This document shows positions 14,437 through 48,548 of a stretch of 64,000 nucleotides of DNA, one piece after another (the stretch's first letter is position 1; each line of letters opens with the position of its first letter). Both the position numbers and the translations under genes were made by a program. The DNA is taken from NCBI GenBank assembly GCA_030765235.1, contig JAVCCW010000030.1, positions 8,144 to 72,143 on the forward strand, given 5' to 3'. Origin of the DNA: Candidatus Gorgyraea atricola (GTDB lineage: Bacteria > Omnitrophota > Gorgyraeia > Gorgyraeales > Gorgyraeaceae). Under the pieces are notes generated by a model. The model saw nothing but the letters and a program-made list of their open reading frames with translations, was not told the origin of the DNA and did no database searches.

Positions 14437-14474
14437 GCTTCTGTAGGCCAGGTTTAAACCTGGCCTACAGAAGC
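14437..14474. repeat. GCCAGGTTTAAACCTGGC-core palindromic hairpin (copy 1), between cimA and valS
   Basis: GCTTCTGTAGGCCAGGTTTAAACCTGGCCTACAGAAGC perfect palindrome. Confidence 0.7.
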
Positions 14475-14500
14475 GGGAGACTGCTAAAGCGTAAAGATCT

Positions 14501-16069
14501 CTATTTGATTTTGTCTTTTAATAGTTTGTACTCGACGCTGTCTACTAGGGCTTGCCAGCTGGCTTCGATGATGTTCTCTGACACGCCAACAGTGCCCCAG
14601 GACGAACGCTCGTCCTGCGACTGGATCAACACACGGACCTTTGCTGCAGTGCCTGCTTTTTCATCCAGCACCCTTACCTTGAAGTCAGACAAATGCATCT
14701 TTGCGAGCGTTGGATAAAATTTGTTCAGTGCCTTACGCAGCGCATTGTCCAACGCATTCACAGGACCATCGCCCTCCGCGGCTGTGTGCTCCTCTTTCCT
14801 GTTTACCTTTACCTTTATAGTCGCCTCTGATATAAGGGTGTTATCTTCCCTTTTCTCAATGCTCACCTTAAAACCCTCGAGACTAAAAAATGGCTTATAT
14901 TTTTTCAGCGCCTTTTTCATCAAGAGCTGAAACGAAGCATCAGCTGCCTCAAAATAATATCCTTGATTCTCAAGATTCTGTATAAGCCTTAAGATCTTCT
15001 TGGTCTTTGGGTCCTCCTTTGAAAGATCTAGCTCCATCTCTTTTGCCTTAAGGATGATACTAGTCTTGCCTGAGAGCTCTGAAACAAGGATCCTTCTGTG
15101 ATTCCCCACTAACTCTGGCTTAATGTGTTCATATGTCTCGGGATTTTTCATGACCGCGTTGACATGCACGCCGCCTTTATGCGCGAAAGCGGACCTGCCA
15201 ACAAAAGGCTGATTATCCTTTTGTTTCATGTTCGAAAGCTCGCTCACGTACCGTGAAACTTCTGTAAGCTCCTTCAGCTTAGAATCTGACACGCACCTGC
15301 GCCCCATCTTTAATTGAAGATTTGGCACAATAACACACAGGTCTGCGTTCCCGCAGCGTTCGCCGTAACCATTGATCGTACCCTGCACCATGCTGCACCC
15401 TGCATCCACCGCGGCAATAGTATTTGCAACAGCCATGCCGCTGTCATTGTGTGTATGAATCCCTAAAGGCACCTGAAACTCACTTGCCAGAGCCATAACG
15501 ATCCTTGCCAGCTCATACGTAATCATGCCGCCATTTGTATCGCACAACACGATCTCGTCACACCCAGCTTTTACAGCTGTTCGCAGCGTCTCCAGCGCAT
15601 AATCCTTATTATTCAGATATCCGTCAAAAAAATGCTCTGCGTCGTAAAACACTTTACGCTTTTTAGACTTCAGATACTCGACTGTCTCTTTGATTATGTC
15701 CAGGTTTTCCTGCAAAGAAACGTTCAGGACGTCTTCTACGTGCAGATCCCAGGTCTTTCCAAACACAGTCACTGTTTTTGCGCCAGAGTTCAGGAGTGAC
15801 TTCAGATTACCGTCTTTTGCAGGGCTGATCTTTGCCCGTTTGGTGCTGCCAAAGGCAACTACCTCAGATTTTTTAAACCTGGTCTTCATAGCTTCTTTAA
15901 AAAATGCCATGTCTTTTGGATTAGACCCAGGCCACCCGCCTTCTATATAATGAATCCCCAGCAGATCCAGCTTCTTCGCGACCCTTAGTTTATCATTCAA
16001 AGAAAAGGAAACCCCTTCTCCCTGCGAACCATCCCGTAATGTAGTGTCATATAACTTGATTTCCTGCAT
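14501..16069 (-). CDS. cimA: (R)-citramalate synthase / 2-isopropylmalate synthase family, CimA-type; start MQEIKLYDTTLRDG at 16069 preferred
   Basis: DTTLRDGSQ, IEGGWPGSNPKD (TIGR00977-like) and a LeuA-dimer regulatory C-terminus. The shorter start has a GGGAAGAAGGG RBS and abuts the lysC stop. Confidence 0.75.
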   Translation of the reverse strand: MQEIKLYDTTLRDGSQGEGVSFSLNDKLRVAKKLDLLGIHYIEGGWPGSNPKDMAFFKEAMKTRFKKSEVVAFGSTKRAKISPAKDGNLKSLLNSGAKTVTVFGKTWDLHVEDVLNVSLQENLDIIKETVEYLKSKKRKVFYDAEHFFDGYLNNKDYALETLRTAVKAGCDEIVLCDTNGGMITYELARIVMALASEFQVPLGIHTHNDSGMAVANTIAAVDAGCSMVQGTINGYGERCGNADLCVIVPNLQLKMGRRCVSDSKLKELTEVSRYVSELSNMKQKDNQPFVGRSAFAHKGGVHVNAVMKNPETYEHIKPELVGNHRRILVSELSGKTSIILKAKEMELDLSKEDPKTKKILRLIQNLENQGYYFEAADASFQLLMKKALKKYKPFFSLEGFKVSIEKREDNTLISEATIKVKVNRKEEHTAAEGDGPVNALDNALRKALNKFYPTLAKMHLSDFKVRVLDEKAGTAAKVRVLIQSQDERSSWGTVGVSENIIEASWQALVDSVEYKLLKDKIK

Positions 16070-16071
16070 AT

Positions 16072-17298
16072 CTATCCCTTCTTCCCTAATCCAAACGCCT
16101 TGTGAAGCGTCCGGACTGCCTCCTCTGCGCGCTTCTTCTTTATCACGCACGATATCTTTATCTCAGAGGTCGAGATCATGTCTATATTAATCTTTTTTAA
16201 GGCCAGGGCCTGAAACATCTGCGCTGCTACTCCTGAGTGACTCTTCATACCAATGCCGACTATGGAAACCTTTGCAATGTCATTGTTATAAATCGCGCCC
16301 TTTGCCTTTACACCTTTCACTATCTTGTGCACAACCTGCTTGGTCCTGGCAAGCTCAGCAAGAGGCACTGTAAAAGAAACATCTGTATAGCCTGTCCTTG
16401 ATATATTTTGAATTATCATATCAACGTTTATATCTGCCTTTGCCAGATCCTTAAATATGACTGCTGCTATACCTGGCCTGTCAGGCACATCACATATAGT
16501 TACTTTTGCTTCGCCTTTATTTGCGGTAACACCGCTAACAAGAACATCTTCCATTGCCTTGACCTCCTCAGAAATAATAGTTCCCTGTTTATTGTTAAAA
16601 CTCGAACGTATGTGCAGCGGTACGGAAAATTTCTTCGCGACTTCCATTGACCTCGCCTGCATAACCTGCGCGCCCAGCGACGCCAGTTCAAGCATCTCTT
16701 CATAGCTTATGCGCGAAAGCTTCTTCGCATCCTTTACGATCCTTGGATCAGCAGTATAAACGCCCTCCACATCGGTATATATCTCGCACACCTTTGCCTT
16801 GAGCGTCTTGGCAAGCGCCACTGCTGTAATATCTGAACCTCCGCGGCCAAGCGTTGTGATCTCCTGCTCAGGATTTATACCCTGAAAACCAGCCACGATA
16901 ACCACCTTGCCTCTTTTTAGTTCTGCCTTTATTTTGCCAGCACTGACACCCACGATCCTTGCCTTTGTGTGGCTGTCATCTGTCATGATACCTACCTGCG
17001 CGCCGGTAAAAGAGATGGCTCCCACGCCCATCCTGTGTAACGCCATTGCCAGGAGCGAAACAGAAACCTGTTCACCCGTAGATATAAGCATGTCTATCTC
17101 TCGCTTGCTCGGCACAGGCGTGATCTCGTGCGCGAGATTCATGAGTTCATCTGTAGTATCTCCCAGCGCAGAAACCACCACCACAAGTCCATAGCCATTC
17201 TTCTTGTACCTGGCGATCCTCCTGGCTACATTCTTTATCCTGTCTATATTAGCGACAGAGCTCCCGCCGTATTTTTGTACGATTAAATTGTTTCGCAT
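16072..17298 (-). CDS. lysC: aspartate kinase
   Basis: MRNNLIVQKYGGSSV kinase N-terminus, two C-terminal ACT domains, 408 aa. Confidence 0.85.
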   Translation of the reverse strand: MRNNLIVQKYGGSSVANIDRIKNVARRIARYKKNGYGLVVVVSALGDTTDELMNLAHEITPVPSKREIDMLISTGEQVSVSLLAMALHRMGVGAISFTGAQVGIMTDDSHTKARIVGVSAGKIKAELKRGKVVIVAGFQGINPEQEITTLGRGGSDITAVALAKTLKAKVCEIYTDVEGVYTADPRIVKDAKKLSRISYEEMLELASLGAQVMQARSMEVAKKFSVPLHIRSSFNNKQGTIISEEVKAMEDVLVSGVTANKGEAKVTICDVPDRPGIAAVIFKDLAKADINVDMIIQNISRTGYTDVSFTVPLAELARTKQVVHKIVKGVKAKGAIYNNDIAKVSIVGIGMKSHSGVAAQMFQALALKKINIDMISTSEIKISCVIKKKRAEEAVRTLHKAFGLGKKG

Positions 17299-17997
17299 CT
17301 AAGCCTTCTTTTTTTAACTATCGTAAAAACATCAAAAACCATCGCGCCTGCCATTGCAATAAGCACGATTGAAACACTTACCAGCGCGAATTCTTTGTCT
17401 TTTATAAAATGCACTGCCTGATATAAAAGCGCTCCTATAGAGGTAACAAGCATAAAGACAGCTGGTAAAAAAGTAAACTTAATGCTTTTTCCTCTACACA
17501 AAAGCCAGCTCGATATCACCACAAAGCTAAGCGCTGCCACCAGCTGATTGCTGGCGCCAAATACAGGCCAGATCTTGCCCCATTTACCGCTTAGGGCCAA
17601 AAGACCACTGATAAATATTACCACAAAGGTAGAAAAGAATCTATTCTTTATTTTAAAAAGTTCTTCGGATAAGTACCTGCATATCCTTGTCGCTGTATCT
17701 AATGTCGTAAGGATGAATGCGTTAAGTATCATCACTGCTACAAGGCCACCATCCCCAGAGCGCTACACCTATAATAGGCCCTACGATCGGCCCTGCTCCG
17801 GCAATGCTCGCAAAATGATGACTAAAAAGGATTAACCAATTCCTGGCAGGTACGTAATCCACGCCGTCATAATACTTGTGGGCAGGCGTCACGTTTTTGG
17901 GATTTACTTCAAAGAATCTCTCTATGATCCGGGCATAAAAAAAATACCCGGCTCCGAGGAACACGAGCGAGGCTAGGATTACTGTGAGTGAATTCAT
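17283..17997 (-). pseudogene. cstA: carbon starvation protein CstA remnant: two out-of-frame fragments (17722-17997 N-terminal, 17283-17735 internal)
   Basis: Fragment 1 carries CstA N-terminal blocks (DYVPARNWLILFSHHFASIAGAGPIVGPIIG). Fragment 2 carries AFILTTLDTATR. Together ~240 aa versus ~600-700 aa for intact CstA, with a frame change at 17722-17735. Confidence 0.5.
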
Positions 17998-19245
17998 CTA
18001 TCGGATAAAGAATTCCATCAATTCGTAACCGCGGTCAATGCGGAATTTGGTCGAACGGGCCTCTTTCTCGTTAAAATACAGGATATCATCCTGCTCTATG
18101 TCAGTACCATACATCGCAAAACACACGTGATCGCGCGAATGTGTCCTGAGAGAGATGGGTGTCGCGTGATCAGAGGTAACAAGTATCCTGAATTCCTCTT
18201 TCGAAGACTTAAAATGCTCCAGCACTGTCCCGACGACAAATTTGTCAAACTTCTCAATGCTCGTGATCTTCTCTTTTAGATCCCCGTTATGACCAGCCTC
18301 GTCAGGCGCCTCCACATGCACAAATACAAAATCCCTATCCTTAAGAGAATCGATCGCATACTGCGCCTTGCCCAAATAATTCGTATCATAATAACCAGTT
18401 GCGCCAGGCACATCGATCACCTTTAGCCCAATGATCTTACCTATACCTTTAATAAGATCCACTGCTGAAATGATAGCGCCTTCTATCTTGTACTTCTCTG
18501 AAAACTTCGGCATGAATGGCCTTGTGCCTTGTCCCCATAGCCAGGTCGCATTCGCAGGATTTTCTTTCAGATCCAACCGCACCCTATTTACCTCGTGACT
18601 CAGCAGCACATCCCTGGAATCATCCATGAGCCTCTTTAAAAATTCAGCATAGTCACCTTTTTTCGGAAGACGAGGATCTATCTTTTTGCCGATAATGTCA
18701 TGCGGCGGCGCGCACTTCACCTTCATAAGCCCCTTTAGCTCATCTTTATTGTTGCACCTCAATATAAGCAAATGTCTATAGCTCATGCCCGCATAAAATC
18801 TTATATCTTTGGTACTCATCTTGGCATTCAGTTCATCAATAAGATGCCTGGCCTCTTCGCTCGATATATGGCCTGCGCTATAATCCGCCATCCGCCCGTT
18901 AGAAATAGTCACGAGATTGCACCTGAATGCTATCTCGTCGTCCTTCATATCTATGTCCATATTCGCTGCCTCGAGCGGTCCGCGGCCTGTATAATACTTG
19001 CGCGGACTATATCCTAATATAGAAAGATTTGCAACATCACTTGCAGGCGCAAAACGGCCAGGTATCATATTCGTAAGTCCGACCCTGCCCTTCTCTGCAA
19101 TAAAATTCATATTAGGGGTCTTGGCTGCCTCAAGAGGCGTCTTGCCTCCAAGTTCCTCCAGCGGCCTATCTCCCATACCATCGCCGACTAAAACAATATA
19201 TTTCATCTGCGCGCCCTTCTCTTTTTTATCTTCCCTTTTTTCCAC
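17998..19245 (-). CDS. ApgM-type cofactor-independent phosphoglycerate mutase family protein (possible non-orthologous homoserine kinase)
   Basis: MKYIVLVGDGMGDRPL...KTPLEAAKTPNMN metalloenzyme N-terminus, 415 aa, archaeal-type iPGM family. Confidence 0.75.
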   Translation of the reverse strand: MEKREDKKEKGAQMKYIVLVGDGMGDRPLEELGGKTPLEAAKTPNMNFIAEKGRVGLTNMIPGRFAPASDVANLSILGYSPRKYYTGRGPLEAANMDIDMKDDEIAFRCNLVTISNGRMADYSAGHISSEEARHLIDELNAKMSTKDIRFYAGMSYRHLLILRCNNKDELKGLMKVKCAPPHDIIGKKIDPRLPKKGDYAEFLKRLMDDSRDVLLSHEVNRVRLDLKENPANATWLWGQGTRPFMPKFSEKYKIEGAIISAVDLIKGIGKIIGLKVIDVPGATGYYDTNYLGKAQYAIDSLKDRDFVFVHVEAPDEAGHNGDLKEKITSIEKFDKFVVGTVLEHFKSSKEEFRILVTSDHATPISLRTHSRDHVCFAMYGTDIEQDDILYFNEKEARSTKFRIDRGYELMEFFIR

Positions 19246-21383
19246 GCCCTGAAAAATGCCTCTACTACAGCAGGGTCAAACTGTGTGCCCACGTTATCCT
19301 TGAGCTCTTTCAATGCCTGCTTCCCTGGCAATGCCTTTCTGTAAGGCCTGTCAGATACCATGGCATGATATGCATCCACAACAGCTATAATGCGAGACTC
19401 GATAGGGATCTCCTCGGCCTTTAGCCCGTCAGGGTAACCACTGCCATCATATTTTTCCTGATGGTGTTTGATTATAACAGCTACCTTTCTTAATCTAGCA
19501 ACAGGCTCCACGATCCTGGCGCCTACATCACAGTGCTGCTTCATTATGCCCCACTCCTCAGAACTGAGTTTCTTCTTTTTATTCAATATCGCGTCAGGCA
19601 CGCCTATCTTGCCTATATCGTGCAAGAGAAGCGCGACCTTTAATTCCTCCATATCAATGCTTGATTTCTGTAATTCAGGGAGCTCATTCGCAACTATCAT
19701 CCCATATTTTGTGACCTCATCCAAATGCCCGCGCGTATAAGAATCCTTCTCATCCACGGTCTTGGCCAGCGCCAACACTGTCTCGAAATGGTTCTTTTTT
19801 TCTTTCTCCCTGAGATTTTCCAGTTTGAGAAAATTCTTCGCATTCTCTATGGCAATAGCGACTTCGTTTGAAAGAGTGGAAAGCAGGCTGATCTCTTCAC
19901 TTGTATAAGGATCTCCCGAGAACTTCTCACCCAGGATCAAAAAACCTGTCAGATCCTTATTCCAGAAACTCGGCATACAAACCTGGCAACCCAACCCCCT
20001 TAATTCACGCTTTAGCTTCTTTTCTCCAACGCCCACGCTTGTATACAGGAGAGGCTTTACCTCTCTCTTTAACCACATAGGTACTGGATGATCACTCCCT
20101 AAAACACACCCTTCCAGGTCCTGGTTATCGCCTCGACGAAATCTTAAAACAAAGTCGCGCGTTTTCTCGTCATATAAAAAAATACAGACACTGCTCGAAC
20201 GCATGTATTTTTTTACAATTCGCGCTATTAGATTTATTAATTTCTGAAGATCAGTTATGAGCACCATGCCGCTACTTGCCTGTACCAGCATGCGCTCATA
20301 TGAAAACCTCTTCTGGAATAAAAATCTGTCTGTCAGCCTTACCAGGAGCCATTCCAGCGGCCTTATTGAAAACACTATGATGAGGACTGCTACGAGTTGA
20401 ATATGACGCGCCCAGTCAAATCTACTATAAAGGGCCTGCTGTATATGAAACACCGCGGATATAAAGCCAAAAAATACAAGCGTAAAGATAAACCAGAAAA
20501 TAAGCTTACGGCCGATCAAATGCCGTTTTTTAACAGTGACCTTTTTTTCGAGCCTCTCTGGCTCGACATACAGATTGTGCATTATGGCTGTGGCGCGCAC
20601 TATCCTGCCGAGCTTATCCATCTCCTCTGGCGCTAATTCAAGAGTAGCTGGATCAAACAATCCTCCTATAAAAGATGTCCCCTCTGTTTTATGTTTATCT
20701 TCAGCGCCTGGCGGCATACCATAAAGTATTACATCCTTTGGTGGTTCTGGCAGTCTTGTAAATCTCTCAGCCAGGTCATACAGCCTGAACATCCCTATAT
20801 CACTTAAAACAATGTTAGGCTTAAACGTCTTTATCTTCTTTAAGACCTCTTCTTTTGTAAAAGCGACGTCCAGCTGATACATGCCCTTGCAGCGCTCCTT
20901 ATCCTGGAAATACGCAAGTTTTGGACTGTACATTATCTTGTTCGGTTCTATAAAAAGAAGCCTTGCCTTGGTCAAGATATTAGAATCCTCAGTTAATTCT
21001 GAAAAACGCCCTCCATCGTATTTCTTTCGAGAAAGGGTCGTTTCTACAATGCTCGCGAGTGTCGCGACTGAAAAGGGTTTGTTTAAAACAGCGTCGCACC
21101 CTATTTTTTCTATCTCTTCCTTATAGTCATCCAAAAAACCTGAAAGCATAACAGTCTTGACGTCAGGATGCGCCTCCCTTACCACCTTCAGGACCTCCAG
21201 GCCGTCTACATCCGGTATTTGAATGTCTAAGAGGATCAAGTCAAACCTGCGTTCATTCAAATATTTTATTGCCTCCTGACCTGAAAAGACAACGCTGACC
21301 TCATAACCCTTTGAAACAAAGAGGTCCTTCAGTGTCAGGGCAATGACCTTTTCATCATCGACTATCAAGATGCGCTTGCTCAT
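19203..21383 (-). CDS. response regulator: receiver domain, membrane segment, GAF-like region, HD-GYP phosphodiesterase
   Basis: N-terminal REC (ILIVDDE...DLILLDIQIPDVDG), central hydrophobic stretch, C-terminal HD-GYP (HDIGKIGVP...HHQEKYDGSGYPDGL). Confidence 0.75.
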   Translation of the reverse strand: MSKRILIVDDEKVIALTLKDLFVSKGYEVSVVFSGQEAIKYLNERRFDLILLDIQIPDVDGLEVLKVVREAHPDVKTVMLSGFLDDYKEEIEKIGCDAVLNKPFSVATLASIVETTLSRKKYDGGRFSELTEDSNILTKARLLFIEPNKIMYSPKLAYFQDKERCKGMYQLDVAFTKEEVLKKIKTFKPNIVLSDIGMFRLYDLAERFTRLPEPPKDVILYGMPPGAEDKHKTEGTSFIGGLFDPATLELAPEEMDKLGRIVRATAIMHNLYVEPERLEKKVTVKKRHLIGRKLIFWFIFTLVFFGFISAVFHIQQALYSRFDWARHIQLVAVLIIVFSIRPLEWLLVRLTDRFLFQKRFSYERMLVQASSGMVLITDLQKLINLIARIVKKYMRSSSVCIFLYDEKTRDFVLRFRRGDNQDLEGCVLGSDHPVPMWLKREVKPLLYTSVGVGEKKLKRELRGLGCQVCMPSFWNKDLTGFLILGEKFSGDPYTSEEISLLSTLSNEVAIAIENAKNFLKLENLREKEKKNHFETVLALAKTVDEKDSYTRGHLDEVTKYGMIVANELPELQKSSIDMEELKVALLLHDIGKIGVPDAILNKKKKLSSEEWGIMKQHCDVGARIVEPVARLRKVAVIIKHHQEKYDGSGYPDGLKAEEIPIESRIIAVVDAYHAMVSDRPYRKALPGKQALKELKDNVGTQFDPAVVEAFFRAWKKGKIKKRRARR

Positions 21384-30739: not shown

Positions 30740-30776
30740 AAAAAAAGCCGAGGTCCAGCCTCGGCTTTTTTAGTCC
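30740..30776. terminator. AGCCGAGGTCCAGCCTCGGCT hairpin flanked by A/T runs, between trpF and the HDAC gene
   Basis: AAAAAAAGCCGAGGTCCAGCCTCGGCTTTTTT; same family as 12527-12590 and 61684-61727. Confidence 0.6.
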
Positions 30777-31417
30777 TCTTCTGCGCGGCGGACTTCTTTT
30801 ATGAATTCCTCCATCAGCTCCACATTTTTCTTGCCTGGACTTGATTCTATGCCGCTTGAAACATCTACAGCGTATGGCCTGATCTCTTTTACTATGTCAT
30901 AGACATTATCAGAGGTAAGTCCGCCTGATATTATAATGCGCCTGTCATATTCTTTTGCCAGAACAGCTAGCGTCCTGTCAAAACCCTTACCTGTGCCGCC
31001 ATACACACTGCTTATATACGCGTCCAGTAAAAATGCATCTGCTGGACATTCCTCTATGGAATCAAGGCTTTCTTTATCCTTGACCCTGATGGCCTTTATT
31101 AATTTAATGCCTTTGAATCGTAAGGATTTAAATCCTAAACAATATTTCACATCCTCATCGCCATGTAACTGCACAGCATTTAATCCATATCTTTCAACAC
31201 ATTCTTCAATAAATCCCAGATCTTCATTAACAAAAACACCTACTGCGCTTACATAGGGCGGAAGTCTCCTTATTATATCTCCCGCGTCTTTAGGGCTGAT
31301 ATAGCGAGGACTTTCTTTAAAAAATACAAACCCAAGGGCATCTGCTCCTACTGCAACAGCCTTCTCAGCATCCCGCGCCGAAGTTATCCCGCAAAACTTC
31401 ACCCTAACCCTTATCAT
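30770..31417 (-). CDS. trpF: phosphoribosylanthranilate isomerase
   Basis: KFCGITSARDA...GADALGFVF TIM-barrel PRAI signature. Confidence 0.85.
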   Translation of the reverse strand: MIRVRVKFCGITSARDAEKAVAVGADALGFVFFKESPRYISPKDAGDIIRRLPPYVSAVGVFVNEDLGFIEECVERYGLNAVQLHGDEDVKYCLGFKSLRFKGIKLIKAIRVKDKESLDSIEECPADAFLLDAYISSVYGGTGKGFDRTLAVLAKEYDRRIIISGGLTSDNVYDIVKEIRPYAVDVSSGIESSPGKKNVELMEEFIKEVRRAEED

Positions 31418-32198
31418 CCCCCATTACCTCCCTTATTTTTCCCTCAATATCCTTAGCCCCAAGAAAAGCCCCTCCTATCAAAACCGCATTTACGCCTGCA
31501 TCCCTGAGTCTGGCAATATCATGGTCTGACGCTATCCCGCTCTCGCTTACCTTTATTATTTGATCCGGCATCTTTGAAATTAATTTGAATGTGGCATCGA
31601 TATTCACCTTGAATGTATCAAGATCCCTATTGTTAATGCCTATTATTTTTGCATCGCTAATAATAGCCTTTTCCAGATCCTTCTCATCATGAACTTCAAC
31701 GAGGCACTCCATACCTATCCTCTTGGCCAAATACATAAAGCTTTTTATCTCTTCCTTTGTCAGAATCCTGGCGATCAGAAGGATCGCATCCGCTCCAGCA
31801 TAACGCGATTCATAGACCTGATACTCGTCTATGATAAAATCTTTTCGAAGCACAGGTAGATCTGTGACACGCCGCACCTCGCTGATATGCGAAATGTTGC
31901 CTCCAAAGTATTTTTTATCTGTCAATACGGATATCGCGGCAGCACCTGAGTCTGCATATATCTTGGCGAGACGCGCAACATCAAACTTTTTTGAGAAGCC
32001 CTTTTTATGTGAAGGCGATTTGGATTTTATCTCGGCAATGAGATTTACGCGATTGGCTATTGATATTGCTTCCCTGAAAGACCGTACACCTTTAAGAAGT
32101 CGTTTTGAATCAACAAAATGCGTAATCGGCCTCTTGACCTTCAAGGCCTCTACTTCTTTTTTCTTCAGATTGATTATTTCTTTTAAAAAATTGGTCAT
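31404..32198 (-). CDS. trpC: indole-3-glycerol phosphate synthase
   Basis: IAEIKSKSPS, LRKDFIIDEYQ, GINNRDL blocks. Confidence 0.85.
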   Translation of the reverse strand: MTNFLKEIINLKKKEVEALKVKRPITHFVDSKRLLKGVRSFREAISIANRVNLIAEIKSKSPSHKKGFSKKFDVARLAKIYADSGAAAISVLTDKKYFGGNISHISEVRRVTDLPVLRKDFIIDEYQVYESRYAGADAILLIARILTKEEIKSFMYLAKRIGMECLVEVHDEKDLEKAIISDAKIIGINNRDLDTFKVNIDATFKLISKMPDQIIKVSESGIASDHDIARLRDAGVNAVLIGGAFLGAKDIEGKIREVMGDDKG

Positions 32199-32214
32199 GC
32201 TTCTATCCCTAGTA

Positions 32215-32264
32215 AGCCTGGCTTCCGTAGGCCAGGTTTAAACCTGGCCTACGGAAGCCAGGCT
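32215..32264. repeat. GCCAGGTTTAAACCTGGC-core palindromic hairpin (copy 2), between trpD and trpC
   Basis: AGCCTGGCTTCCGTAGGCCAGGTTTAAACCTGGCCTACGGAAGCCAGGCT. Confidence 0.7.
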
Positions 32265-32268
32265 CAAG

Positions 32269-33279
32269 TTATTTATTTGTAAATACTATCAATTTCTCTA
32301 ATTTCTCCATCGCCCTGCCCGACGCGATGGATTCCCTTGTCAGCTCAATGCCTTTTTTGAAATCCTGGGCAAGTCCGCCCGCAACCAATGCACTAGATGC
32401 ATTTAAGAGTACAACATCTTGCTTTGCGCCTGAGACTCCTTTAAGCACCTCTTTTATGATTCGAGCATTATCTTCAGCGCTGCCGCCTTTTATATCTTCA
32501 AGCCGCGCGACCTTTATTTTAAAATCCTGAGGCTTCACGCAAAAAGTCTTTATCTTTCCATCCTTTAATTCAGACACCTGAGTCTTTCCTGTAATAGTGA
32601 TCTCGTCAAGGCCATCAAGTCCGTGAACCACAAATGAATGCCTTTCCCCAAGATTTTTCAATACACTTGCCATGACCTCTGTAAGTTCCTTGCGATATAC
32701 GCCCAGCACCTGACAATTAGCCCCTGCAGGATTTGTAAGGGGGCCGAGTATGTTAAATATAGTGCGTATACCTATTTCTCGTCGAGGATCTATGGCATAT
32801 TTCATCGCTCCATGAAAAAGAGGGGCAAATAAAAATCCAATGCCGACCTCTTTTATACAGGTCTCGACTTTATTTGGGGCAATATCGATATTCACCCCAA
32901 GCGCCTTTAAGACATCTGCGCTGCCGCATTGGCTTGAGACAGCCCTGTTGCCATGCTTGGCGACCTTTAGGCCTGCTCCGCTCACAACAAAACCAGCTGC
33001 TGTCGAGATATTAAAACTACCAGTGTTACTCCCGCCAGTTCCACAGGTATCAATAACTGTATCGCCGCCAACATTTATCTTAACTGCCTTTTCGCGCATA
33101 ACCATACTAGCGCCAGTAATCTCATCCACTGTCTCGCCCTTTAATCTAAGCGCAGTAATAAAGCTGGCTATCTGCGCAGAAGTTGCCCGGCCTGTCATTA
33201 TCTCACCCATGCACACGACCATCTCTTCACGCGTCAAATTAACTCCATCAACTACCTTACCTATGGCTTGTTTTATCAT
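32269..33279 (-). CDS. trpD: anthranilate phosphoribosyltransferase
   Basis: IDTCGTGGSNTGSFNISTAA and KHGNRAVSS motifs. Confidence 0.9.
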   Translation of the reverse strand: MIKQAIGKVVDGVNLTREEMVVCMGEIMTGRATSAQIASFITALRLKGETVDEITGASMVMREKAVKINVGGDTVIDTCGTGGSNTGSFNISTAAGFVVSGAGLKVAKHGNRAVSSQCGSADVLKALGVNIDIAPNKVETCIKEVGIGFLFAPLFHGAMKYAIDPRREIGIRTIFNILGPLTNPAGANCQVLGVYRKELTEVMASVLKNLGERHSFVVHGLDGLDEITITGKTQVSELKDGKIKTFCVKPQDFKIKVARLEDIKGGSAEDNARIIKEVLKGVSGAKQDVVLLNASSALVAGGLAQDFKKGIELTRESIASGRAMEKLEKLIVFTNK

Positions 33280-38470: not shown

Positions 38471-38506
38471 ATCCCTTCTCCCCTTAGCTTAACTTTACAC
38501 TTGTGC

Positions 38507-38560
38507 AAAGCTCCTTCTCTGTAGGCCAGGTTTAAACCTGGCCTACAGAGAAGGAGCTTT
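38507..38560. repeat. GCCAGGTTTAAACCTGGC-core palindromic hairpin (copy 3), between proA and hisB
   Basis: AAAGCTCCTTCTCTGTAGGCCAGGTTTAAACCTGGCCTACAGAGAAGGAGCTTT. Confidence 0.7.
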
Positions 38561-38564
38561 AAAG

Positions 38565-39821
38565 TTATTTTCTGATTTGCCCAGTGCCAAGGACTACATA
38601 CTTATAGGTACATAGCTCTTCGAGCGCCATTGGGCCGCGCGCGTGGATCTTGTCTGTTGAAATGCCTATCTCTGCGCCCATGCCAAATTGATATCCGTCT
38701 GTAAATCTGGTGGATGCATTCCAATACACACAGGCCGAGTCCACCCTGCTCAAAAATTCATCCGCTACCTTTTTATTTTTCGTCACTATCGCGTCTGAAT
38801 GAGCTGAGCCATACTTATTTATGAAATCAATCGCCTCGCCCGCGTCGCTAACCACCTTGATGGCCAGCGTCAAGTCCAGATATTCTGCATACCAGTCTTT
38901 CTCAGTCGCTGCCTTTATGTCCTTCAATATCTTACGCGTCTTTTCGCATCCCCGCAGCTCAACGCCCGGCTCTTTTAAAATATCAGCCAAGAGCGGCAAA
39001 AACTTCTGCGCCACAGCCTTATGCACCAAAAGAGTCTCTATGGCATTGCACACGCCAGGTCTCTGCACTTTTGCATTAAATGCGATCTTAAGCGCTTTTT
39101 TTAAATCAGCGAAGTTATCAACATAAAGATGACACACGCCCTTATAATGTTTTATGACAGGTATTGTGGAGATACCTGCAACATGTTTTATCAATCCCTC
39201 GCCGCCCCTCGGTATTACAACATCCACTAACTCAGGGGCCTTTAGTAAGACCTCCACTGCTAGCCTATCAGCAATATCTATCATGCTGATAGCTGAACGC
39301 GGGATACCGAACTTTTCAATATCCTGCGTGATCACCTTATGGATAGCAATATTGGAATCGATCGCTTCACTCCCGCCCCGCAAAACGCATGCATTGCCAG
39401 ACTTCAGGCACAACCCTGCGCAATCGCTTGTCACGTTGGGCCTTGATTCATAGATAATACCGACCACACCTATGGGCACGCGCACCTTTTTTATCTTAAG
39501 TCCATTCGGCCGCTTCCATTGCCTCATTACCTCACCAACAGGATCCTTTAAACCCGCGACTGAACGCAGACCCTCAGCCATATCTTTTATGCGGCTATTT
39601 GTAAGAGTGAGCCTGTCTATCATGGCCTTTGAGAGACCTTTTTTCTTAGCAGATGCAACATCCTTGGCATTCCGCAAAAGTATAAATCTGGAATTCTTCA
39701 AAAGCGCCTGCGCCATTGCCGCTAGGGCTCTATTTTTATTCTTAGTAGAGATACCCGCCAGCACTCTCGAAGCATCCTTGGCCTGCATCAACATTTTTAA
39801 GATCTTATCCTTTAGTCGCAT
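38565..39821 (-). CDS. proA: gamma-glutamyl phosphate reductase; track start 39863, MRLKDKIL at 39821 preferred
   Basis: Aldehyde dehydrogenase fold with GPR blocks (IYESRPNVT, catalytic Cys region); preferred start lies just downstream of the proB stop. Confidence 0.85.
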   Translation of the reverse strand: MRLKDKILKMLMQAKDASRVLAGISTKNKNRALAAMAQALLKNSRFILLRNAKDVASAKKKGLSKAMIDRLTLTNSRIKDMAEGLRSVAGLKDPVGEVMRQWKRPNGLKIKKVRVPIGVVGIIYESRPNVTSDCAGLCLKSGNACVLRGGSEAIDSNIAIHKVITQDIEKFGIPRSAISMIDIADRLAVEVLLKAPELVDVVIPRGGEGLIKHVAGISTIPVIKHYKGVCHLYVDNFADLKKALKIAFNAKVQRPGVCNAIETLLVHKAVAQKFLPLLADILKEPGVELRGCEKTRKILKDIKAATEKDWYAEYLDLTLAIKVVSDAGEAIDFINKYGSAHSDAIVTKNKKVADEFLSRVDSACVYWNASTRFTDGYQFGMGAEIGISTDKIHARGPMALEELCTYKYVVLGTGQIRK

Positions 39822-41918: not shown

Positions 41919-41924
41919 AAATCT

Positions 41925-42239: not shown

Positions 42240-42281
42240 TATAACCCCCCTTTTATAAACTTTTAATTATACACTATTTGC

Positions 42282-43775: not shown

Positions 43776-44056
43776 TCTACTATCCTCACTTCCTCAGGTA
43801 ATTTTCCATTGATCCTATTCATAAATTCGTCCGGTTCGATCCATTTATCTAAAGAAAAACCCGCCTTTTCGCTTTCGCTTTCAACACCCAACTTTAACGC
43901 CTGCCCAAAACTTATTTTATAATGAGGGGAAAAACCCTGACTCAGGCTAACCGGAAGAGAGGCCCTTCTCACAGATCTCTGAAAAAGCCTTACAATGTCC
44001 AGGTGGGAAATATACCTTAGATCGCCTCTTTTGCAGAACGTCGCCTCTAACTTCAT
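43757..44056 (-). CDS. DUF2344 (TIGR03936-like) protein, unusually short
   Basis: RYISHLDIVRLFQRSVRRASLPVSLSQGFSPHYKISF matches the DUF2344 N-terminus. Only 99 aa; overlaps the rng start. Confidence 0.55.
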   Translation of the reverse strand: MKLEATFCKRGDLRYISHLDIVRLFQRSVRRASLPVSLSQGFSPHYKISFGQALKLGVESESEKAGFSLDKWIEPDEFMNRINGKLPEEVRIVECRKRF

Positions 44057-45459
44057 TTAGTTACTGCGACCGCAGTGCTGGAATCAGGATTGACTATGTT
44101 AACTGTTATAAAAAATAAAAGGTCAGTAGTATCGACCTCTTTTTCTTTTTTCTTAAACAATAAACTCAATATAGGTATATCCCCCAGGATCGGAATCTTG
44201 TACACCCTGTCTATTATCTGCTCTCTTATAAGTCCTCCTACAACTATTGTATCTCCATCTTTTACCATGACCTGTGTTGAGGCCTTGCGCGTAGAAAATC
44301 TCGGGGCCTGAATACTTCCTGAGCCACTTGTAAAGGTATCCCATGTTATAAAAGACGATACCTCTGGTTCCATGTTAACAACGATATAACCCGCTGGATT
44401 TATCTGAGGCGTAACTGAAAGAGTAATACCCAGTTCTTTCTCGTCATACCCAGTGACTTCTATCCTGCCTGTAGAATCGTCACGTTCATAAGTCGGTATG
44501 CTAAATGTAGTCGCAACCACTATCCTTGCTTCCTGATTATCCAAGGTCGTTATCCTTGGGTTTGAGATTATCTTTGTGTTTGCCCTGGACTTCAATACCT
44601 CGAGCACTGCCTGAAAAGAGGCAAAACTAAGTGTGCCAAAAGTATAATTACTTGGCAAGGCCAAAGGAAAAGCAGACGCAGGATTATTCACAAATGTTCC
44701 AACGTTTGTGCCTGCCTCTGCGCTAGAATCTCCGTCAGGATAAAAATGGCCCCCGTAGTCTCCAGTATGCCACGGCGCTGTTATGGGCCGCGATGCCCCG
44801 CTCGCGCTTATCTGTGATGTCCATCTAATGCCGAGCTTGTCGTCTTTATCAAGTGTTGTCTCTATGATCTTGGCCTCTATGTTCACCTGTTGTGTGCGCT
44901 TGTCGATCTTTTCTATGACCTGCTTGATCTTGTATATATTCGTAGGGATGTCTGTCACTATTACCAGGTTTGCTCGTTCATCAAACTTCACGCTCCCCCT
45001 GTCGCTCAGCATCTCTTCTATTACTGCTGGCACATCCCCTGCGTTTGCATAATTAAGCGAGAATACCTCTGTCGCGAGCTCTTCCTTTGCCAGGTTTTCT
45101 GTCGTAGTAACTCGAATAATATTCCCCTCTCGCTCGTATGTATAGCCGTAAGTCCTGAGTATGACATCCAATGCCTTTTCCCACGGCACATCTGTCAGCC
45201 TTATAGTCACAGGCCCTGTAACATCCTTGCCAGCAACAATGTTTATGCCGCTCTTATAGGAAAGTATCCTGAGTACATTTGTGATGTCAGCGTCTTTAAA
45301 ATCCAGGGTCACATTGCCGGGCAATGTACTCACCTCACCAGCAGCTAACATACCTGTCTGCGGCGGCGTCTCGGCCTGTTCAGCATCTTCTGCAAAAACC
45401 AGCCCTGTAATTCCAAAAAATAAAACGACAAAAATAACAAGACATTTTAATTCTTTCAT
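44053..45459 (-). CDS. pilQ: type IV pilus secretin
   Basis: Signal peptide, secretin/TonB short N-domain (ITNVLRILSYKSGINIVAG), C-terminal secretin (GGLIREQ...IPILGDIPILSLLF). Confidence 0.8.
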   Translation of the reverse strand: MKELKCLVIFVVLFFGITGLVFAEDAEQAETPPQTGMLAAGEVSTLPGNVTLDFKDADITNVLRILSYKSGINIVAGKDVTGPVTIRLTDVPWEKALDVILRTYGYTYEREGNIIRVTTTENLAKEELATEVFSLNYANAGDVPAVIEEMLSDRGSVKFDERANLVIVTDIPTNIYKIKQVIEKIDKRTQQVNIEAKIIETTLDKDDKLGIRWTSQISASGASRPITAPWHTGDYGGHFYPDGDSSAEAGTNVGTFVNNPASAFPLALPSNYTFGTLSFASFQAVLEVLKSRANTKIISNPRITTLDNQEARIVVATTFSIPTYERDDSTGRIEVTGYDEKELGITLSVTPQINPAGYIVVNMEPEVSSFITWDTFTSGSGSIQAPRFSTRKASTQVMVKDGDTIVVGGLIREQIIDRVYKIPILGDIPILSLLFKKKEKEVDTTDLLFFITVNIVNPDSSTAVAVTK

Positions 45460-45473
45460 ATCTCTCTCCTTTT

Positions 45474-45806
45474 TTAGTCGGTGACTAGCTCTACCCTTAC
45501 CTCGTCACCTTCTACTTCAAAGACCACAGCGCCTTTTTCTATTTTTAAAACCTTTACAATGCCTATTTTCTGACCTTCCTCAGCGATCTCTCCGTTTATA
45601 ATAGCGATGGAACCATTTGCCTCATCCCAGACTATTCCTTCCAATCTGATATCCTTTATGCTGGTTATCCCGTATGCGTCAGAGACATACATGCCGTCTT
45701 TTGAAATAAGCGGAATAAACGGATCCCTCTTAGCCTTAATATCATACTTAAACCCTGATATCAACAATATAGCAATGAAACAAAAAATGATGTATGTTTT
45801 TTTCAT
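45474..45806 (-). CDS. pilP: PilP-like pilus assembly lipoprotein
   Basis: Small signal-peptide protein placed between pilO and pilQ; assigned by position. Confidence 0.45.
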   Translation of the reverse strand: MKKTYIIFCFIAILLISGFKYDIKAKRDPFIPLISKDGMYVSDAYGITSIKDIRLEGIVWDEANGSIAIINGEIAEEGQKIGIVKVLKIEKGAVVFEVEGDEVRVELVTD

Positions 45807-46360
45807 AGTGTCTTTGTAATATATGTACTGACCCTTAACCTTATGTCATGACGCCTGGGATCTTCAGACCTACCCTTTATGTCCACATCGTCTATCCTTA
45901 TGAACGTAGTCATGCTTTCAAGATTGTTCACAAATACGCCGCACTGATGATAACCTCCTCTTGCCTCTATCAAAATCGGGAACTCAGAATAAAGCCCGCC
46001 TGCCTGAGAAATATTGTCCAGCGTCTCAAGGGGCTTGATCCTGAGTATCTTTACGCCCGAAGACTCCGCTACGCTGGAAAAATCCTCGAGCAGGACAGCT
46101 ATCTCATCATGGCCAGCCAGCTGCTGCTCGGAAAGCCTCACCTGCTTGCTTAACTCATCATGTTGTTTTTTTATCCTGGCCTCATTTGTAATCAAATTCT
46201 CAGAGTTTCTTACTCTGACCCTTACTGCGCAGTACTCCCTGTTATTCGCGATAAAACTTCTAAACTGCGGTTTCAGTAGAAGATTAAAATAAATCACAAG
46301 CGCTGCAATTCCAAAAATCCCAAAAAGTATATATAGTTTTTGTTTTTCTTTAAGCTCCAT
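45803..46360 (-). CDS. pilO: type IV pilus assembly protein PilO
   Basis: Single N-terminal TM plus coiled-coil, position after pilN. Confidence 0.55.
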   Translation of the reverse strand: MELKEKQKLYILFGIFGIAALVIYFNLLLKPQFRSFIANNREYCAVRVRVRNSENLITNEARIKKQHDELSKQVRLSEQQLAGHDEIAVLLEDFSSVAESSGVKILRIKPLETLDNISQAGGLYSEFPILIEARGGYHQCGVFVNNLESMTTFIRIDDVDIKGRSEDPRRHDIRLRVSTYITKTL

Positions 46361-46374
46361 ATTAACTCGCCCTG

Positions 46375-46953
46375 TTATTTAAGATACAACACGATCCTGA
46401 AATCCACTATGTCCCTCTCATCTATGCTTTTTCTCTGCACAGATTCGAGCTTGATGTTACTGAAATCTTTAAAGAATGTCTTATTATCGCGTACATTTTT
46501 CATGAACTTGCCTACTGTTGCCATAGCCTCTTCCTGCTTAGGTATCACACTGCCCTCTACTACCAGCTTATCTTCTGAATCTGTCCGGATCCTCGTAAAC
46601 CAGATCCCCGGCAGAATCAGATCAGAAAGATAGTTCAGCTTCTCTGCCCATAAAAATCTGCGGCTGGTGACCCCATCCATCATGTTCATCTTTGCCTTTA
46701 GGGTGACTATCTCTTTATTGATCGTCTCTATGTCTAATGTCTCTGCTGCAAAATTTTGCTCCTTAAGAAGCAGCCTCTGCGTCTGCTTCTTTCTGACGAA
46801 AGAGCCCACCAGACAAAACAGAACGAGTATTATTAATATGCCTGCAGCTGCAGCGCCTCCTATGACCTTGACTTTTTCCATCTCAAGGTCCAGCTTAAAC
46901 TGCGGCTGCCTTTTCTTACGCATCTCCTCCGGCAATAAATTTATCTCTATCAT
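46375..46953 (-). CDS. pilN: type IV pilus assembly protein PilN
   Basis: MIEINLLPEE start typical of PilN, single TM, ~190 aa. Confidence 0.6.
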   Translation of the reverse strand: MIEINLLPEEMRKKRQPQFKLDLEMEKVKVIGGAAAAGILIILVLFCLVGSFVRKKQTQRLLLKEQNFAAETLDIETINKEIVTLKAKMNMMDGVTSRRFLWAEKLNYLSDLILPGIWFTRIRTDSEDKLVVEGSVIPKQEEAMATVGKFMKNVRDNKTFFKDFSNIKLESVQRKSIDERDIVDFRIVLYLK

Positions 46954-46954
46954 A

Positions 46955-47926
46955 TCACTGCCTCAGCGCCAGGCCGATTGCTACTGCAAATAAGGCCGGC
47001 GATCCTTCTGGCTCGCTAACAGGACCCGCTAATGAAACAGCCTCAAACGGATCCCACATCACTACAGGTAAGCCTAAATTATCTTTAAGAAAATCCAGCA
47101 TATTAAAGAGATACGAAGTCCCGCCGCTTATGTAGACCTTTTCAACGCCCCTGCCGAACTGACTTTCAAAATAATCAAAAGACATCCGCATCTGCGACGA
47201 GAGCCTTTCAAGCACAGGATTAATAACGCTTATCACTTCTTCCCTTTTCTCAGCAGGGTTCTTCTTTAATGCCTCCGCGTCTTCCAGGCTGAGCGCCATT
47301 GCATCCCTGATCCTTTTTGTAATATCTGCGCCGCCCCACAATATATCCCTTGTAAAATATACATTTCCCTTTGTTACGATATTCATATTGGAAAAACGCT
47401 CACCCATATTGATAAGACCGTATGCCGCGTCTTCCTTTTTCTCTGCCGCTGCATGGAAACAATTTAAAAATGCAAAACTGTCTACGTCTATAGTGCCTAT
47501 CTCGAGTCCAAAATTTTTAAAAAGCTCTATCAGTCTATCCACTTCCGGCTTCTTTGCCGCGACCAGCAAAACCCTTTGACTCCCGGAACTCGTCTTGTCA
47601 AGCACCGCACAATCTATTATGGACTGATCTATGTCAAATGGTATATACTTCCCTGCCTCGAACTTTATTGCGCTTTCTATCTCTTCTTTTTTCATGGGCG
47701 GCATCTCGATGTAGCGCACTATCACTGACGGGCCTGCGAGTGAGACATTTACACGCTTCAAAGACAGCTTTGCCTGGCCCAGCAGTGTCTTGAGCGCTGA
47801 GGCTGGATTTCCATCAGCTACAGACGTGATGAGACACTTGGAGACTACAGGCTTGCCTTTTTTATGCTCCAGCTCCACTAACTTTACATTATATTGCCCG
47901 AGATCTATTCCAATGACTTTTTTCAC
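46955..47926 (-). CDS. pilM: type IV pilus assembly ATPase-like protein PilM
   Basis: Actin-like ATPase fold, VIGIDLGQYNVKLV start, 323 aa. Confidence 0.8.
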   Translation of the reverse strand: MKKVIGIDLGQYNVKLVELEHKKGKPVVSKCLITSVADGNPASALKTLLGQAKLSLKRVNVSLAGPSVIVRYIEMPPMKKEEIESAIKFEAGKYIPFDIDQSIIDCAVLDKTSSGSQRVLLVAAKKPEVDRLIELFKNFGLEIGTIDVDSFAFLNCFHAAAEKKEDAAYGLINMGERFSNMNIVTKGNVYFTRDILWGGADITKRIRDAMALSLEDAEALKKNPAEKREEVISVINPVLERLSSQMRMSFDYFESQFGRGVEKVYISGGTSYLFNMLDFLKDNLGLPVVMWDPFEAVSLAGPVSEPEGSPALFAVAIGLALRQ

Positions 47927-47973
47927 TCTATAGCTCCTATATATAAAAAATATTTAATATATACTTACCACAT

Positions 47974-48417
47974 TTATTGCACTACTGGATCATTTACGCT
48001 TGCCGGACCATTAGGATTTGCTTTTATTATGCTGGACTCATCAGAAAAAAAGTATCTCGTGCCTGTTTTTCCAGCAGAAACAGGATTGGCATTCAATGTA
48101 AAGGTCTCGCTGTCAACAAGGGCATAATTAAACGTATAGCCCTGCTTTGTGCCACTGGCAAGTATAGTATCAATGTATGGCGGAATAGAAATCGGCGGAA
48201 CAAGATCCAACATGCTAGATGGATAGGCATGCGGGTAAGAACTCGCGTAAAAGTTCTGTGCCGCAGTAACAACGGTCCTGCATGAAGCCACTGCAGCCAT
48301 CTCATTCGCATTATGCCTGGCGCGCAATACGCTAGAAATAGCCAAGGTCGCAAGCGTCATAACCACTGCGACAACTATCATTATTTCAACTAGGGTAAAC
48401 CCCTGACGCCCTTTCAT
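47974..48417 (-). CDS. type IV pilin / pseudopilin (prepilin cleavage-methylation domain)
   Basis: MKGRQG|FTLVEIMIVVAVV class III signal with Glu+5. Confidence 0.75.
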   Translation of the reverse strand: MKGRQGFTLVEIMIVVAVVMTLATLAISSVLRARHNANEMAAVASCRTVVTAAQNFYASSYPHAYPSSMLDLVPPISIPPYIDTILASGTKQGYTFNYALVDSETFTLNANPVSAGKTGTRYFFSDESSIIKANPNGPASVNDPVVQ

Positions 48418-48462
48418 TTATAACAAATCTATACTAATATAGACAAAAAGTCAATAAAAAAA

Positions 48463-48548
48463 AGTGCCACGTACTAATTTTCCATCGTACGTGGCACTAT
48501 AACAAAACAGAAAAAGTAGACCAGGTTTAAACCTGGTCTACTTTTTTA
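48463..48548 (-). terminator. tandem hairpins downstream of the major pilin gene
   Basis: AAAAAGTAGACCAGGTTTAAACCTGGTCTACTTTTTT (48511-48548) and GTGCCACGTAC-N12-GTACGTGGCAC (48463-48498), both with T-runs in the minus sense. Confidence 0.6.

Follow-up and report, generated by a model that had tools for sequence, protein, structure and literature searches.

Repetitive extragenic palindromes (REPs) and the REP-associated tyrosine transposases (RAYTs) bordered by them form REPtrons, whose arrangement and co-variation have been described by Nunvar et al. (PMC2817692) and Di Nocera et al. (PMC3733652). The REP/TnpArep system of E. coli, the SMAG repeats of Stenotrophomonas and the perfect-stem REPs of group 3 RAYTs are the systems closest to the one presented here (PMC2817692, PMC3733652, PMC3479197, PMC8266576). 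In classical GTAG REPs the GTAG tetranucleotide is unpaired and confined to one end (PMC3733652), and it serves as a guide for the RAYT, which cleaves at CT or CA beside the REP (PMC8266576). The complementary strand of the described families, termed iREP, is inactive (PMC3733652, PMC8266576). In the PVC group, GTAG REPs are already known from Planctomycetes and from Opitutus terrae, in the latter including intragenic copies (PMC3733652). The window analysed here, a stretch of 64,000 nucleotides of contig JAVCCW010000030.1, contains four perfect palindromes between genes, which very probably belong to a GTAG-type REP family of Omnitrophota with a cognate RAYT.

A search of the window for GCCAGGTTTAAACCTGGC, allowing up to three mismatches, retrieved four sites. 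Three are exact (14447, 32231 and 38525) and the fourth, at 48520, differs by two symmetrically placed mismatches (ACCAGG...CCTGGT). By chance, 0.03 matches would be expected in the window, and none of 100 shuffled sequences reached four. The copies and their immediate surroundings are:

14437–14474: REP copy 1, a 38-nt perfect palindrome with its 26-nt core at 14443–14468 (GTAGGCCAGGTTTAAACCTGGCCTAC), between the stop of cimA (14501) and the start of valS (14405), both on the minus strand; CT lies directly 5′ of GTAG on both strands.
32199–32268: trpD–trpC spacer of 70 nt, made up of REP copy 2 and about 20 nt of non-palindromic sequence, with a purine-rich stretch (TAGGGATAGAAGC) immediately 5′ of the trpC ATG.
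32215–32264: REP copy 2, a 50-nt perfect palindrome with its core at 32227–32252, at the trpD/trpC junction within the trp operon, both genes on the minus strand.
38507–38560: REP copy 3, a 54-nt perfect palindrome with its core at 38521–38546, at the proA/hisB junction (minus strand); CT lies directly before GTAG.
48511–48546: REP copy 4, a 36-nt perfect palindrome with its core at 48516–48541, located 3′ of a pilin gene (48560–49006, minus strand); a symmetric variant, GTAGACC...GGTCTAC, with A5/T5(6) runs on its flanks.

All four copies are spacerless perfect palindromes, with arms of 19, 25, 27 and 18 nt for copies 1 to 4, and have in common a 26-nt unit, GTAG[G/A]CCAGGTTTAAACCTGG[C/T]CTAC. 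Every gene at these sites lies on the minus strand, in the order cimA to valS, trpD to trpC, proA to hisB and pilin to pilin according to NCBIfam. As single strands the copies fold with −16 to −31 kcal/mol when computed as DNA and with −25 to −50 kcal/mol when computed as RNA, corresponding to z-scores of −7 to −13 against shuffled controls. An Rfam scan of the window at gathering thresholds yielded tRNA-Met alone and no match at the palindromes. The first-pass annotation had placed a palindrome at each of these intergenic sites and had considered each able to fold as a hairpin; the positions, the perfect symmetry and the neighbouring genes agree with it, and the computed energies lie far beyond those of the controls. 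Three details require correction. Copy 4 ends at 48546 instead of 48548, since the last two T fall outside the palindrome. A conserved core is present, but not one of 18 strictly invariant nucleotides, as the copy 4 variant reduces the centre shared by all four to 16 nt (CCAGGTTTAAACCTGG) plus GTAG/CTAC. Likewise, the palindromic flanks do vary, but since the conserved unit spans 26 nt, the truly variable part measures 5–14 nt per side and not 8–16 nt.

The family extends well beyond the window. One genome per prokaryotic species was scanned with RCCAGGTTTAAACCTGGY as query, giving 116 loci at an estimated chance yield of about 35 in 596 Gb. Retrieved stretches carry L-numbers; the first 116 are these genome loci, L118–L124 are syntenic relatives of the window, and the others include metagenome contigs. 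The family signature, GTAG[G/A]CC...GG[C/T]CTAC or its GC-rich variant GGTGCC...GGCACC, is present in 61 of the 116 loci, at non-orthologous sites, from 22 species-level assemblies. By title, 16 of these are Omnitrophota or Omnitrophica, five bear the title ‘uncultured Planctomycetia’, and the remaining one is represented by a short contig binned as ‘Nanoarchaeota’. The richest metagenome-assembled genome (MAG), KR13_N2.mb.45, holds 20 exact-core copies. A scan of JGI metagenomes with the 26-mer added 106 further stretches, so that the core is not restricted to the four copies from which the first-pass annotation had proposed a dispersed element. Overall, 155 unique copies with GTAG...CTAC were collected. 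Two of the metagenome stretches, L218 (100% identical to the window over 1,512 nt, window positions 30877–32388) and L127 (96% identical), stem from the window's own organism or a close strain, and the same scan of the metagenome collection yielded the contigs carrying the RAYT gene described below. The window itself belongs to Omnitrophota; its TrpC protein is at best 90% identical to metagenome proteins and 60–75% identical to proteins with Omnitrophota or Omnitrophica names. A literature search for the core sequence and for palindromic repeats in Omnitrophota retrieved no relevant report.

Copy density ranges from four in 1.7 kb (L127) and four in 13.6 kb (L184) through four in 64 kb in the window, where all are singletons, to two in an 830-kb contig; pairs of REPs are found beside RAYT genes. 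Among the 34 intergenic copies with an open reading frame (ORF) call on both sides, 29 lie between co-directional genes with short spacers, as judged by crude ORF calls. All-against-all BLASTP of the genes around the 61 genome copies revealed no neighbour family recurring beyond glycosyltransferases and syntenic duplicates; the copies are therefore dispersed and not bound to one type of gene.

Comparison of the copies reveals a two-sided architecture. GTAG occupies both arms in 155 of the 160 copies with GTAG on one side or more, as it does in each of the four window copies. At position 5 of the unit (n = 155) the opposing bases are G:C in 142 copies, A:T in nine, C:G in two, and T:A and G:T in one each; changes are therefore almost always double and pair-preserving. 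At orthologous post-pilin sites, this pair is A:T in the window and L127, and G:C in L128 and L153. Of 310 arms, 97 (31%) have CT immediately 5′ of GTAG, compared with 7% in nearby sequence, and short GTAGCT tandem repeats adjoin the core in several copies. In 68% of copies the palindrome exceeds the 26-nt unit, and in 48% it reaches at least 17 nt per arm, compared with an expectation of 0.4%. Its edges are sharp, as complementarity past the first mismatch is exactly random (2.0 of 8 positions). On this ground, an origin of the outer arms from old palindromes undergoing mutational decay was rejected. Hexamers adjoining GTAG are shared between copies in 196 pairs, against 45 pairs for control hexamers, and the flank is therefore partly inherited within sub-families, for example CTCTCTGTAGG. 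The view that every variable flank is the stem of a host hairpin that was already in place, the element having jumped into its loop, was rejected as a general rule, because the relatives at trpD/trpC lack a hairpin; for some copies, such as those within the TAACTTTACACTTG family described below, nesting in a host hairpin does hold. Chimeric or one-sided cores which mix sub-families were observed in L004, L136 (3316–3341), L011 and L127 (~1608–1633), examples being GGTGCC...GGCCTAC, GGTGCC...GGACTAC and GTAGACC...GGCCTAC. They suggest exchange between copies at the central TTTAAA.

A candidate for the cognate transposase was detected with phmmer, using E. coli RayT as query, as one ORF present in two metagenome contigs (L136 2808–3292 and L201 6831–7316; E 1.7e-8). 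The predicted protein of 161 amino acids contains the HUH motif PDHLHLI and the tyrosine motif YIHNNPV, and matches Pfam Y1_Tnp at 1.7e-14. With the NCBIfam model NF047646, ‘REP-associated tyrosine transposase’, it scores 130 bits (cut-off 80), and with the IS200 model 30.5 bits (cut-off 55). The nearest solved structure is E. coli TnpArep (4er8), with which the HUH and tyrosine motifs align. By these model scores and motifs, the enzyme is placed in the RAYT clade of HUH/Y1 enzymes and not with IS200/IS605 TnpA. Its 64 homologues include proteins from Candidatus Gorgyraea atricola (91% identity), Candidatus Aadella gelida and Candidatus Omnitrophota as named sources, and one of them already carries the NCBI name REP-associated tyrosine transposase.

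In five contexts (L201 and L232–L236) the RAYT gene directly follows comM, a gene of the Mg-chelatase family, in the same direction. In L238/L239 about 0.9 kb, with an ORF6N gene and a small ORF, separate it from comM upstream. A position downstream of comM is found in six of seven genomic contexts. This linkage spans RAYT identities of 53–100%. The neighbourhood differs in L237, and L231, a contig of 973 nt, is too short to judge. The regions comprising comM and the RAYT gene are:

L201, 5209–7316
L232, 8396–10486
L234, 8301–10483
L235, 8398–10501
L236, 3298–5461
L238, 7363–10315

Gene order and sequence comparison indicate that the RAYT is near single-copy and vertically inherited, with L237 and a second copy in L235 as exceptions. 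This second RAYT adjoins a 3′ fragment of comM (19142–20079). The RAYT cassette of L136/L201 is bracketed by a duplication of about 55 nt from the 3′ end of comM. The RAYT gene of A. gelida (L238/L239, 9832–10315) is split by a frameshift, and its two flanking REPs (GTAGCCGGGGTTTAAACCCCGGCTAC) are the only ones in 20 kb; the frameshift may reflect a decaying REP–RAYT system or a sequencing error.

Every RAYT homologue that was fetched, from seven genomic contexts besides L136/L201, is bordered by 26-nt palindromes that lack a spacer and follow the pattern GTAG-N6-GTTTAAAC-N6-CTAC, the centre being ATTAAT in L237. In L136/L201 the upstream flank holds GTAGGCCAGGTTTAAACCTGGCCTAC, the same palindrome as in the window, and GTAGGCCGGGTTTAAACCCGGCCTAC, which is also given as GTAGGCCGGG...CCCGGCCTAC, and the downstream flank holds the chimeric GGTGCC...GGACTAC (GGTGCCAGG...CCTGGACTAC) together with GTAGTCCAGG...CCTGGACTAC. 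An identical GGCCAGG core stands beside the RAYT in L136/L201, L231, L232/L233 and L234, and variant stems are found in L235, L236, L237 and L238. Ordered by RAYT identity, homologues at 74–100% have one flank with the stem GGCCAGG, as in the window, next to GGCCGGG, GTCCAGG, GACCAGG, GACCGGG or GGCAGGG. The stem becomes GGTCGGG at 63%, GCCGGGG in A. gelida, GCTGAYG and GGGGASG at 53%, and GAGCACCA with the ATTAAT centre at 47%. No homologue departs from GTAG, and only the most distant one departs from the GTTTAAAC centre. On this comparison, the REP stem co-varies stepwise with the divergence of the RAYT. The different stem and the frameshifted RAYT make A. gelida an unlikely source of the window. 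A link to a RAYT gene elsewhere, which the first-pass annotation had named as a check, is thus borne out in related genomes and metagenome contigs, where the transposase is bordered by exactly this palindrome.

Syntenic relatives of the window (L118–L124, 6–21 kb each) were retrieved through TrpC homologues, and the REP core is absent from all seven. At the trpD/trpC junction, where the window has a spacer of 70 nt, the two genes overlap by 4 nt in L118–L120 (88% TrpC identity) and are separated by 1 nt in L121 (90%) and by 11 nt in L122/L123 (74%). The window copies are insertions relative to these close relatives. Neither the comparison of filled with empty sites nor the copy lists revealed direct repeats bounding the palindromes, so that the target-site duplication expected of a MITE (a miniature transposable element with inverted repeats) moved by a DDE transposase is lacking. 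At proA/hisB the hairpin differs by lineage: L118 has GTAGAC...GTCTAC, L122 a 52-nt perfect palindrome centred on AAGCTT, and L124 TTTACA...TGTAAA. These hairpins lie at 38471–38564 in the window, 3680–3724 in L118, 3681–3732 in L122 and ~3420–3470 in L124. Either selection for some hairpin or an insertion hot spot could account for this junction. Spacerless perfect palindromes of 52–56 nt, centred on AAGCTT and lacking GTAG, were observed in L122.

Insertions are also found inside genes. The palindrome has a single open frame, identical on both strands, which reads RPGLNLAY. In a Pfam-supported TGT gene (L022) an in-frame copy accounts for an insertion of 10 residues relative to the TGT of Z. 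mobilis, and a further Pfam-supported copy lies in an LpxL-ELM1 fusion (L038). A TonB-dependent receptor (L040), likewise supported by Pfam, contains the GGTG variant, read as VPGLNLAP. In a GT2 glycosyltransferase gene, again with Pfam support, a copy occupies the identical codon position in three species (L035 1487–1516, L077 5029–5064 and L044 2877–2894), with that of L044 half-decayed (ACAAGCC replaces GTAGGCC), which suggests an old insertion inherited vertically. An ORF of 307 amino acids on the plus strand of the window, likewise with an in-frame copy, was rejected as an antisense artefact; ORF matches without support were therefore left uncounted.

Taken as a REP–RAYT system, the Omnitrophota palindromes represent a known kind of selfish or domesticated DNA, which is undescribed in this phylum until now. 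The defining features of GTAG-type REPs with a cognate RAYT that sequence could address are present, the copy number and array criterion giving no clear outcome. Like the repeats of REPtrons, the element is a short palindrome headed by GTAG, located mostly between co-directional genes and occasionally within genes, with adjoining CT and with sub-families that differ by complementary stem changes. The RAYT resembles those of REPtrons in being bordered by the same repeat, in its HUH and tyrosine motifs, in its score with the RAYT model and in co-varying with the repeat. In contrast to classical REPs, the whole 26-nt unit is spacerless and perfect, GTAG is mirrored by CTAC and both strands present the same GTAG-hairpin. 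Many copies have copy-specific, perfectly palindromic and sharp-edged flanks, the core is common to many species, and the copy number is modest, whereas REPs often exceed 100 per genome. The first-pass annotation had suggested a REP- or BIME-like dispersed element. The REP part is retained, based on the RAYT flanks, the occurrence in 22 assemblies and the insertions; the part referring to bacterial interspersed mosaic elements (BIMEs) is not borne out within the window, where all copies are singletons without BIME-like arrays.

Other palindromic elements show partial resemblance. REPINs, which Bertels and Rainey are said to have described in 2011, reportedly consist of two inverted REPs, each an imperfect palindrome, with a spacer between them. 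The present unit resembles them as a symmetric, hairpin-forming replicating unit tied to a vertically inherited single-copy RAYT, but consists of one hairpin, whose 13-nt halves are non-palindromic. The Rickettsia palindromic element (RPE) RPE-1 is roughly 100–150 nt long. The tolerance of in-frame insertions in conserved genes is shared with RPEs and with the intragenic REPs of Opitutus terrae (PMC3733652). Unlike RPEs, the Omnitrophota element is much shorter (26–30 nt) and has one open frame that yields the same peptide, RPGLNLAY.

The mechanism would follow that of known REPs. As non-autonomous elements, the palindromes would be mobilised in single-stranded form, the 26-nt unit folding into a hairpin that has GTAG at its foot, about 9 bp in its stem and TTAA at its tip. 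The RAYT, an HUH/Y1 enzyme encoded once per genome, would recognise hairpin and GTAG, cut at a nearby CT, bond covalently to the DNA through its tyrosine and rejoin the strand elsewhere, thereby giving rise to new copies. Cleavage at CT or CA beside the REP is a prediction based on the enrichment of CT 5′ of GTAG. Because the REP is a perfect palindrome, both strands present an identical GTAG-hairpin, and the element reads identically in either orientation as DNA, RNA and peptide. We infer that a RAYT mobilises copies of the window type and that the window's genome still encodes one.

Several observations weigh against this interpretation. With the pattern HUH...Y..NPV and with phmmer using E. 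coli RayT, neither the 64-kb window nor the first 116 loci yielded a RAYT, and what ties the transposase to the window's genome is the identical core together with contigs from metagenomes that also hold window sequence. The copy number is modest for a REP, with four in 64 kb, at most 20 exact-core copies in a genome and two in 830 kb. At trpD/trpC the insert of about 70 nt exceeds the palindrome, and neither arm pre-exists in the relatives. Moreover, the standard RAYT model does not explain the variable, perfectly palindromic flanks, and GTAG can pair here with the 3′ CTAC, unlike the unpaired, one-ended GTAG of classical REPs (PMC3733652).

The symmetry could indicate a ‘two-faced’, self-symmetrising REP, in which the RAYT acts on either strand and the arms are regenerated from one another by fold-back, a proposal we put forward only tentatively and regard as rather unlikely. 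Cleavage at the foot of the hairpin would produce a 3′-OH, and fold-back synthesis along the opposite flank would then extend the palindrome outwards in a single step. If true, this model would explain why arms reach at least 17 nt in 48% of copies, why the edges are sharp and perfect and why variants are nearly always symmetric, and it would represent a mode of REP propagation or growth undescribed for known families.

Four other explanations have to be weighed against a REP family with a cognate RAYT. The palindromes might act primarily at the RNA level, maintained by selection at gene ends as terminators or as stabilising hairpins of 3′ ends; their common sequence would then be a coincidence or reflect shared ancestry of the terminators. 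All four copies are indeed located just past a stop codon and between co-directional genes, their RNA hairpins are very stable (−25 to −50 kcal/mol), copy 4 with its T-run is terminator-like, and proA/hisB has a long hairpin in every lineage examined, different each time. However, copy 4 alone was called as an intrinsic terminator; copies 2 and 3 received no call in the region scanned, copy 1 lacks a T-run, and A4/T4 runs lie beside the core in just 8 of 155 copies. The family is therefore not a set of terminators, and the earlier rejection of independent terminators stands. Copy 4 shares with intrinsic terminators a GC-containing stem and a T-run directly after a gene, its opposite A-run making it possibly bidirectional, whereas three window copies and about 95% overall lack a T-run, the stems are much longer and the sequence is kept across loci and species. 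Furthermore, copy 2 is situated within the trp operon, where the genes of relatives overlap, several copies lie in-frame in coding regions, the RAYT flanks would be left unexplained, and a hairpin function needs neither a 26-nt sequence kept across 22 species nor a spacerless palindrome. An origin at the RNA level thus seems very unlikely, which does not preclude secondary effects: copy 4 most likely terminates the pilin transcript, and transcribed copies between co-directional genes probably hinder 3′ exonucleases or terminate transcription in part, a role inferred from other REPs (PMC3733652). Spread independent of a RAYT, by template switching or snap-back synthesis or as the miniature element of another transposase, with the RAYT flanks as a mere insertion site, is less probable still. 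Such processes would fit the perfection of every copy up to a sharp edge followed by random complementarity (2.0 of 8), the long spacerless palindromes without GTAG in relatives (L122, AAGCTT-centred, 52–56 nt) and the fact that most copies have no RAYT nearby. On the other hand, neither target-site duplications nor DDE-type terminal inverted repeats were seen, GTAG and the CT enrichment are hallmarks of RAYTs, and the palindrome flanks the RAYT in every genome examined, with co-varying stems, which would be unexpected for a chance site.

The first-pass annotation had also proposed a binding site for a dimeric protein. A site bound by a conserved dimeric protein, for example a nucleoid-associated, global regulatory or partition-type one, and distributed over many positions to organise the chromosome or regulate genes, would be in line with the perfect two-fold symmetry and with a centre of 16–18 bp conserved across species. 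Nevertheless, the copies arise by insertion of 30–70 nt and not by point mutation, unrelated genes contain them in-frame, their stem sequence changes along with the neighbouring RAYT gene, and the flanks lengthen the palindrome to up to 60 nt, more than a protein site requires. Hence this possibility ranks below the preceding one, and the proposed dimeric protein is better read as a RAYT that would act on the folded single strand. The lowest probability is assigned to a DNA uptake sequence for type IV pilus-dependent transformation, with inverted repeats after genes as in Neisseria, for which the conservation across the phylum, the placement of copies between and inside genes, the large type IV pilus cluster in the window and the copy 3′ of a pilin gene could be adduced. 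Known uptake sequences occur about once per kb. The density found here is far too low for such a function (1 per 16 kb in the window, 2 per 830 kb and 0 in 20 kb of close relatives), the copies are insertions instead of the product of mutational accumulation, and an association with a RAYT would not be expected. A GTAG-type REP family with its cognate RAYT accordingly remains the preferred explanation of the palindromes.

Further palindromic families are present in the window and its relatives. A third family besides the REPs and the repeat treated below, TAACTTTACACTTG...CAAGTGTAAAGTTA with the relative GTTTACACTTAAGTCAATGACTTAAGTGTAAAC, is intergenic in related genomes, and its loop often hosts the GTTTAAAC palindrome. 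Its copies and remnants are:

38490–38503 of the window: left arm, TAACTTTACACTTG; a remnant of the right arm, AAAGTTA, lies at 38561–38567 on the far side of REP copy 3.
L201, 625–661: complete copy, TAACTTTACACTTGTGCAATGCTCAAGTGTAAAGTTA.
L124, 2111–2143 and 6629–6659: copies, in addition to those in the trpD/trpC and proA/hisB spacers.

Since the remnants of both arms straddle REP copy 3, the REP sits inside an older hairpin element. The same nesting is found in L105, L028 and L037/L047.

A second repeat family, AAAAGCCGAGG-CTGGA/TCCAG-CCTCGGCTTTT, resembles a bidirectional intrinsic terminator and is represented in the window at:

12525–12582: two back-to-back copies in-frame within valS (minus strand), encoding the peptide QKAEAGPRLFSKSRGPASAFS in a variable loop.
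30741–30771: one copy, also present in the relative L118 at the orthologous trpF/deacetylase site.
61684–61725: one copy.

The loop of the valS product that harbours this insertion is about 10 residues longer than in ValRS of T. thermophilus (1gax). Two hairpins that share CGCAACCCCGGAGGTT may constitute a fourth small repeat family:

49076–49097: hairpin upstream of the pilin gene.
52476–52524: hairpin with 22-nt arms, between the genes at 49203–52391 and 52535–53737.

Around the pilin gene, L127 (1–1695) is 96% identical to window positions 48297–49022 and then diverges completely; its 1.7 kb contain four REP copies, compared with one in the window. The homology of L128 and L153 to the window stops just downstream of the post-pilin REP, so that REPs may delimit a variable pilin region. 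Across the whole window (1–64000), the long ORFs consistent with real genes are all on the minus strand and the GC skew is about −0.2 throughout. Between 22 and 28 kb the GC content dips to 0.33–0.40, and identity to L118 likewise falls to about 75% in this part.

Among domesticated transposases that coexist with non-autonomous repeats of their own, REP–RAYT systems have been studied best, and work on them has been carried out nearly entirely in Proteobacteria. The Omnitrophota family provides a natural series in an uncultivated phylum, with a fixed RAYT locus, mostly beside comM, and a stem that drifts while the GTAG foot is kept. From such comparative data the recognition code would be directly readable, and it could be tested with oligonucleotides. 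The symmetry and the sharp-edged flanks, which go beyond the current RAYT model, may point to a fold-back step. For the annotation of Omnitrophota MAGs, REPs explain odd short protein insertions (RPGLNLAY) and operon spacers, and possibly contig breaks.

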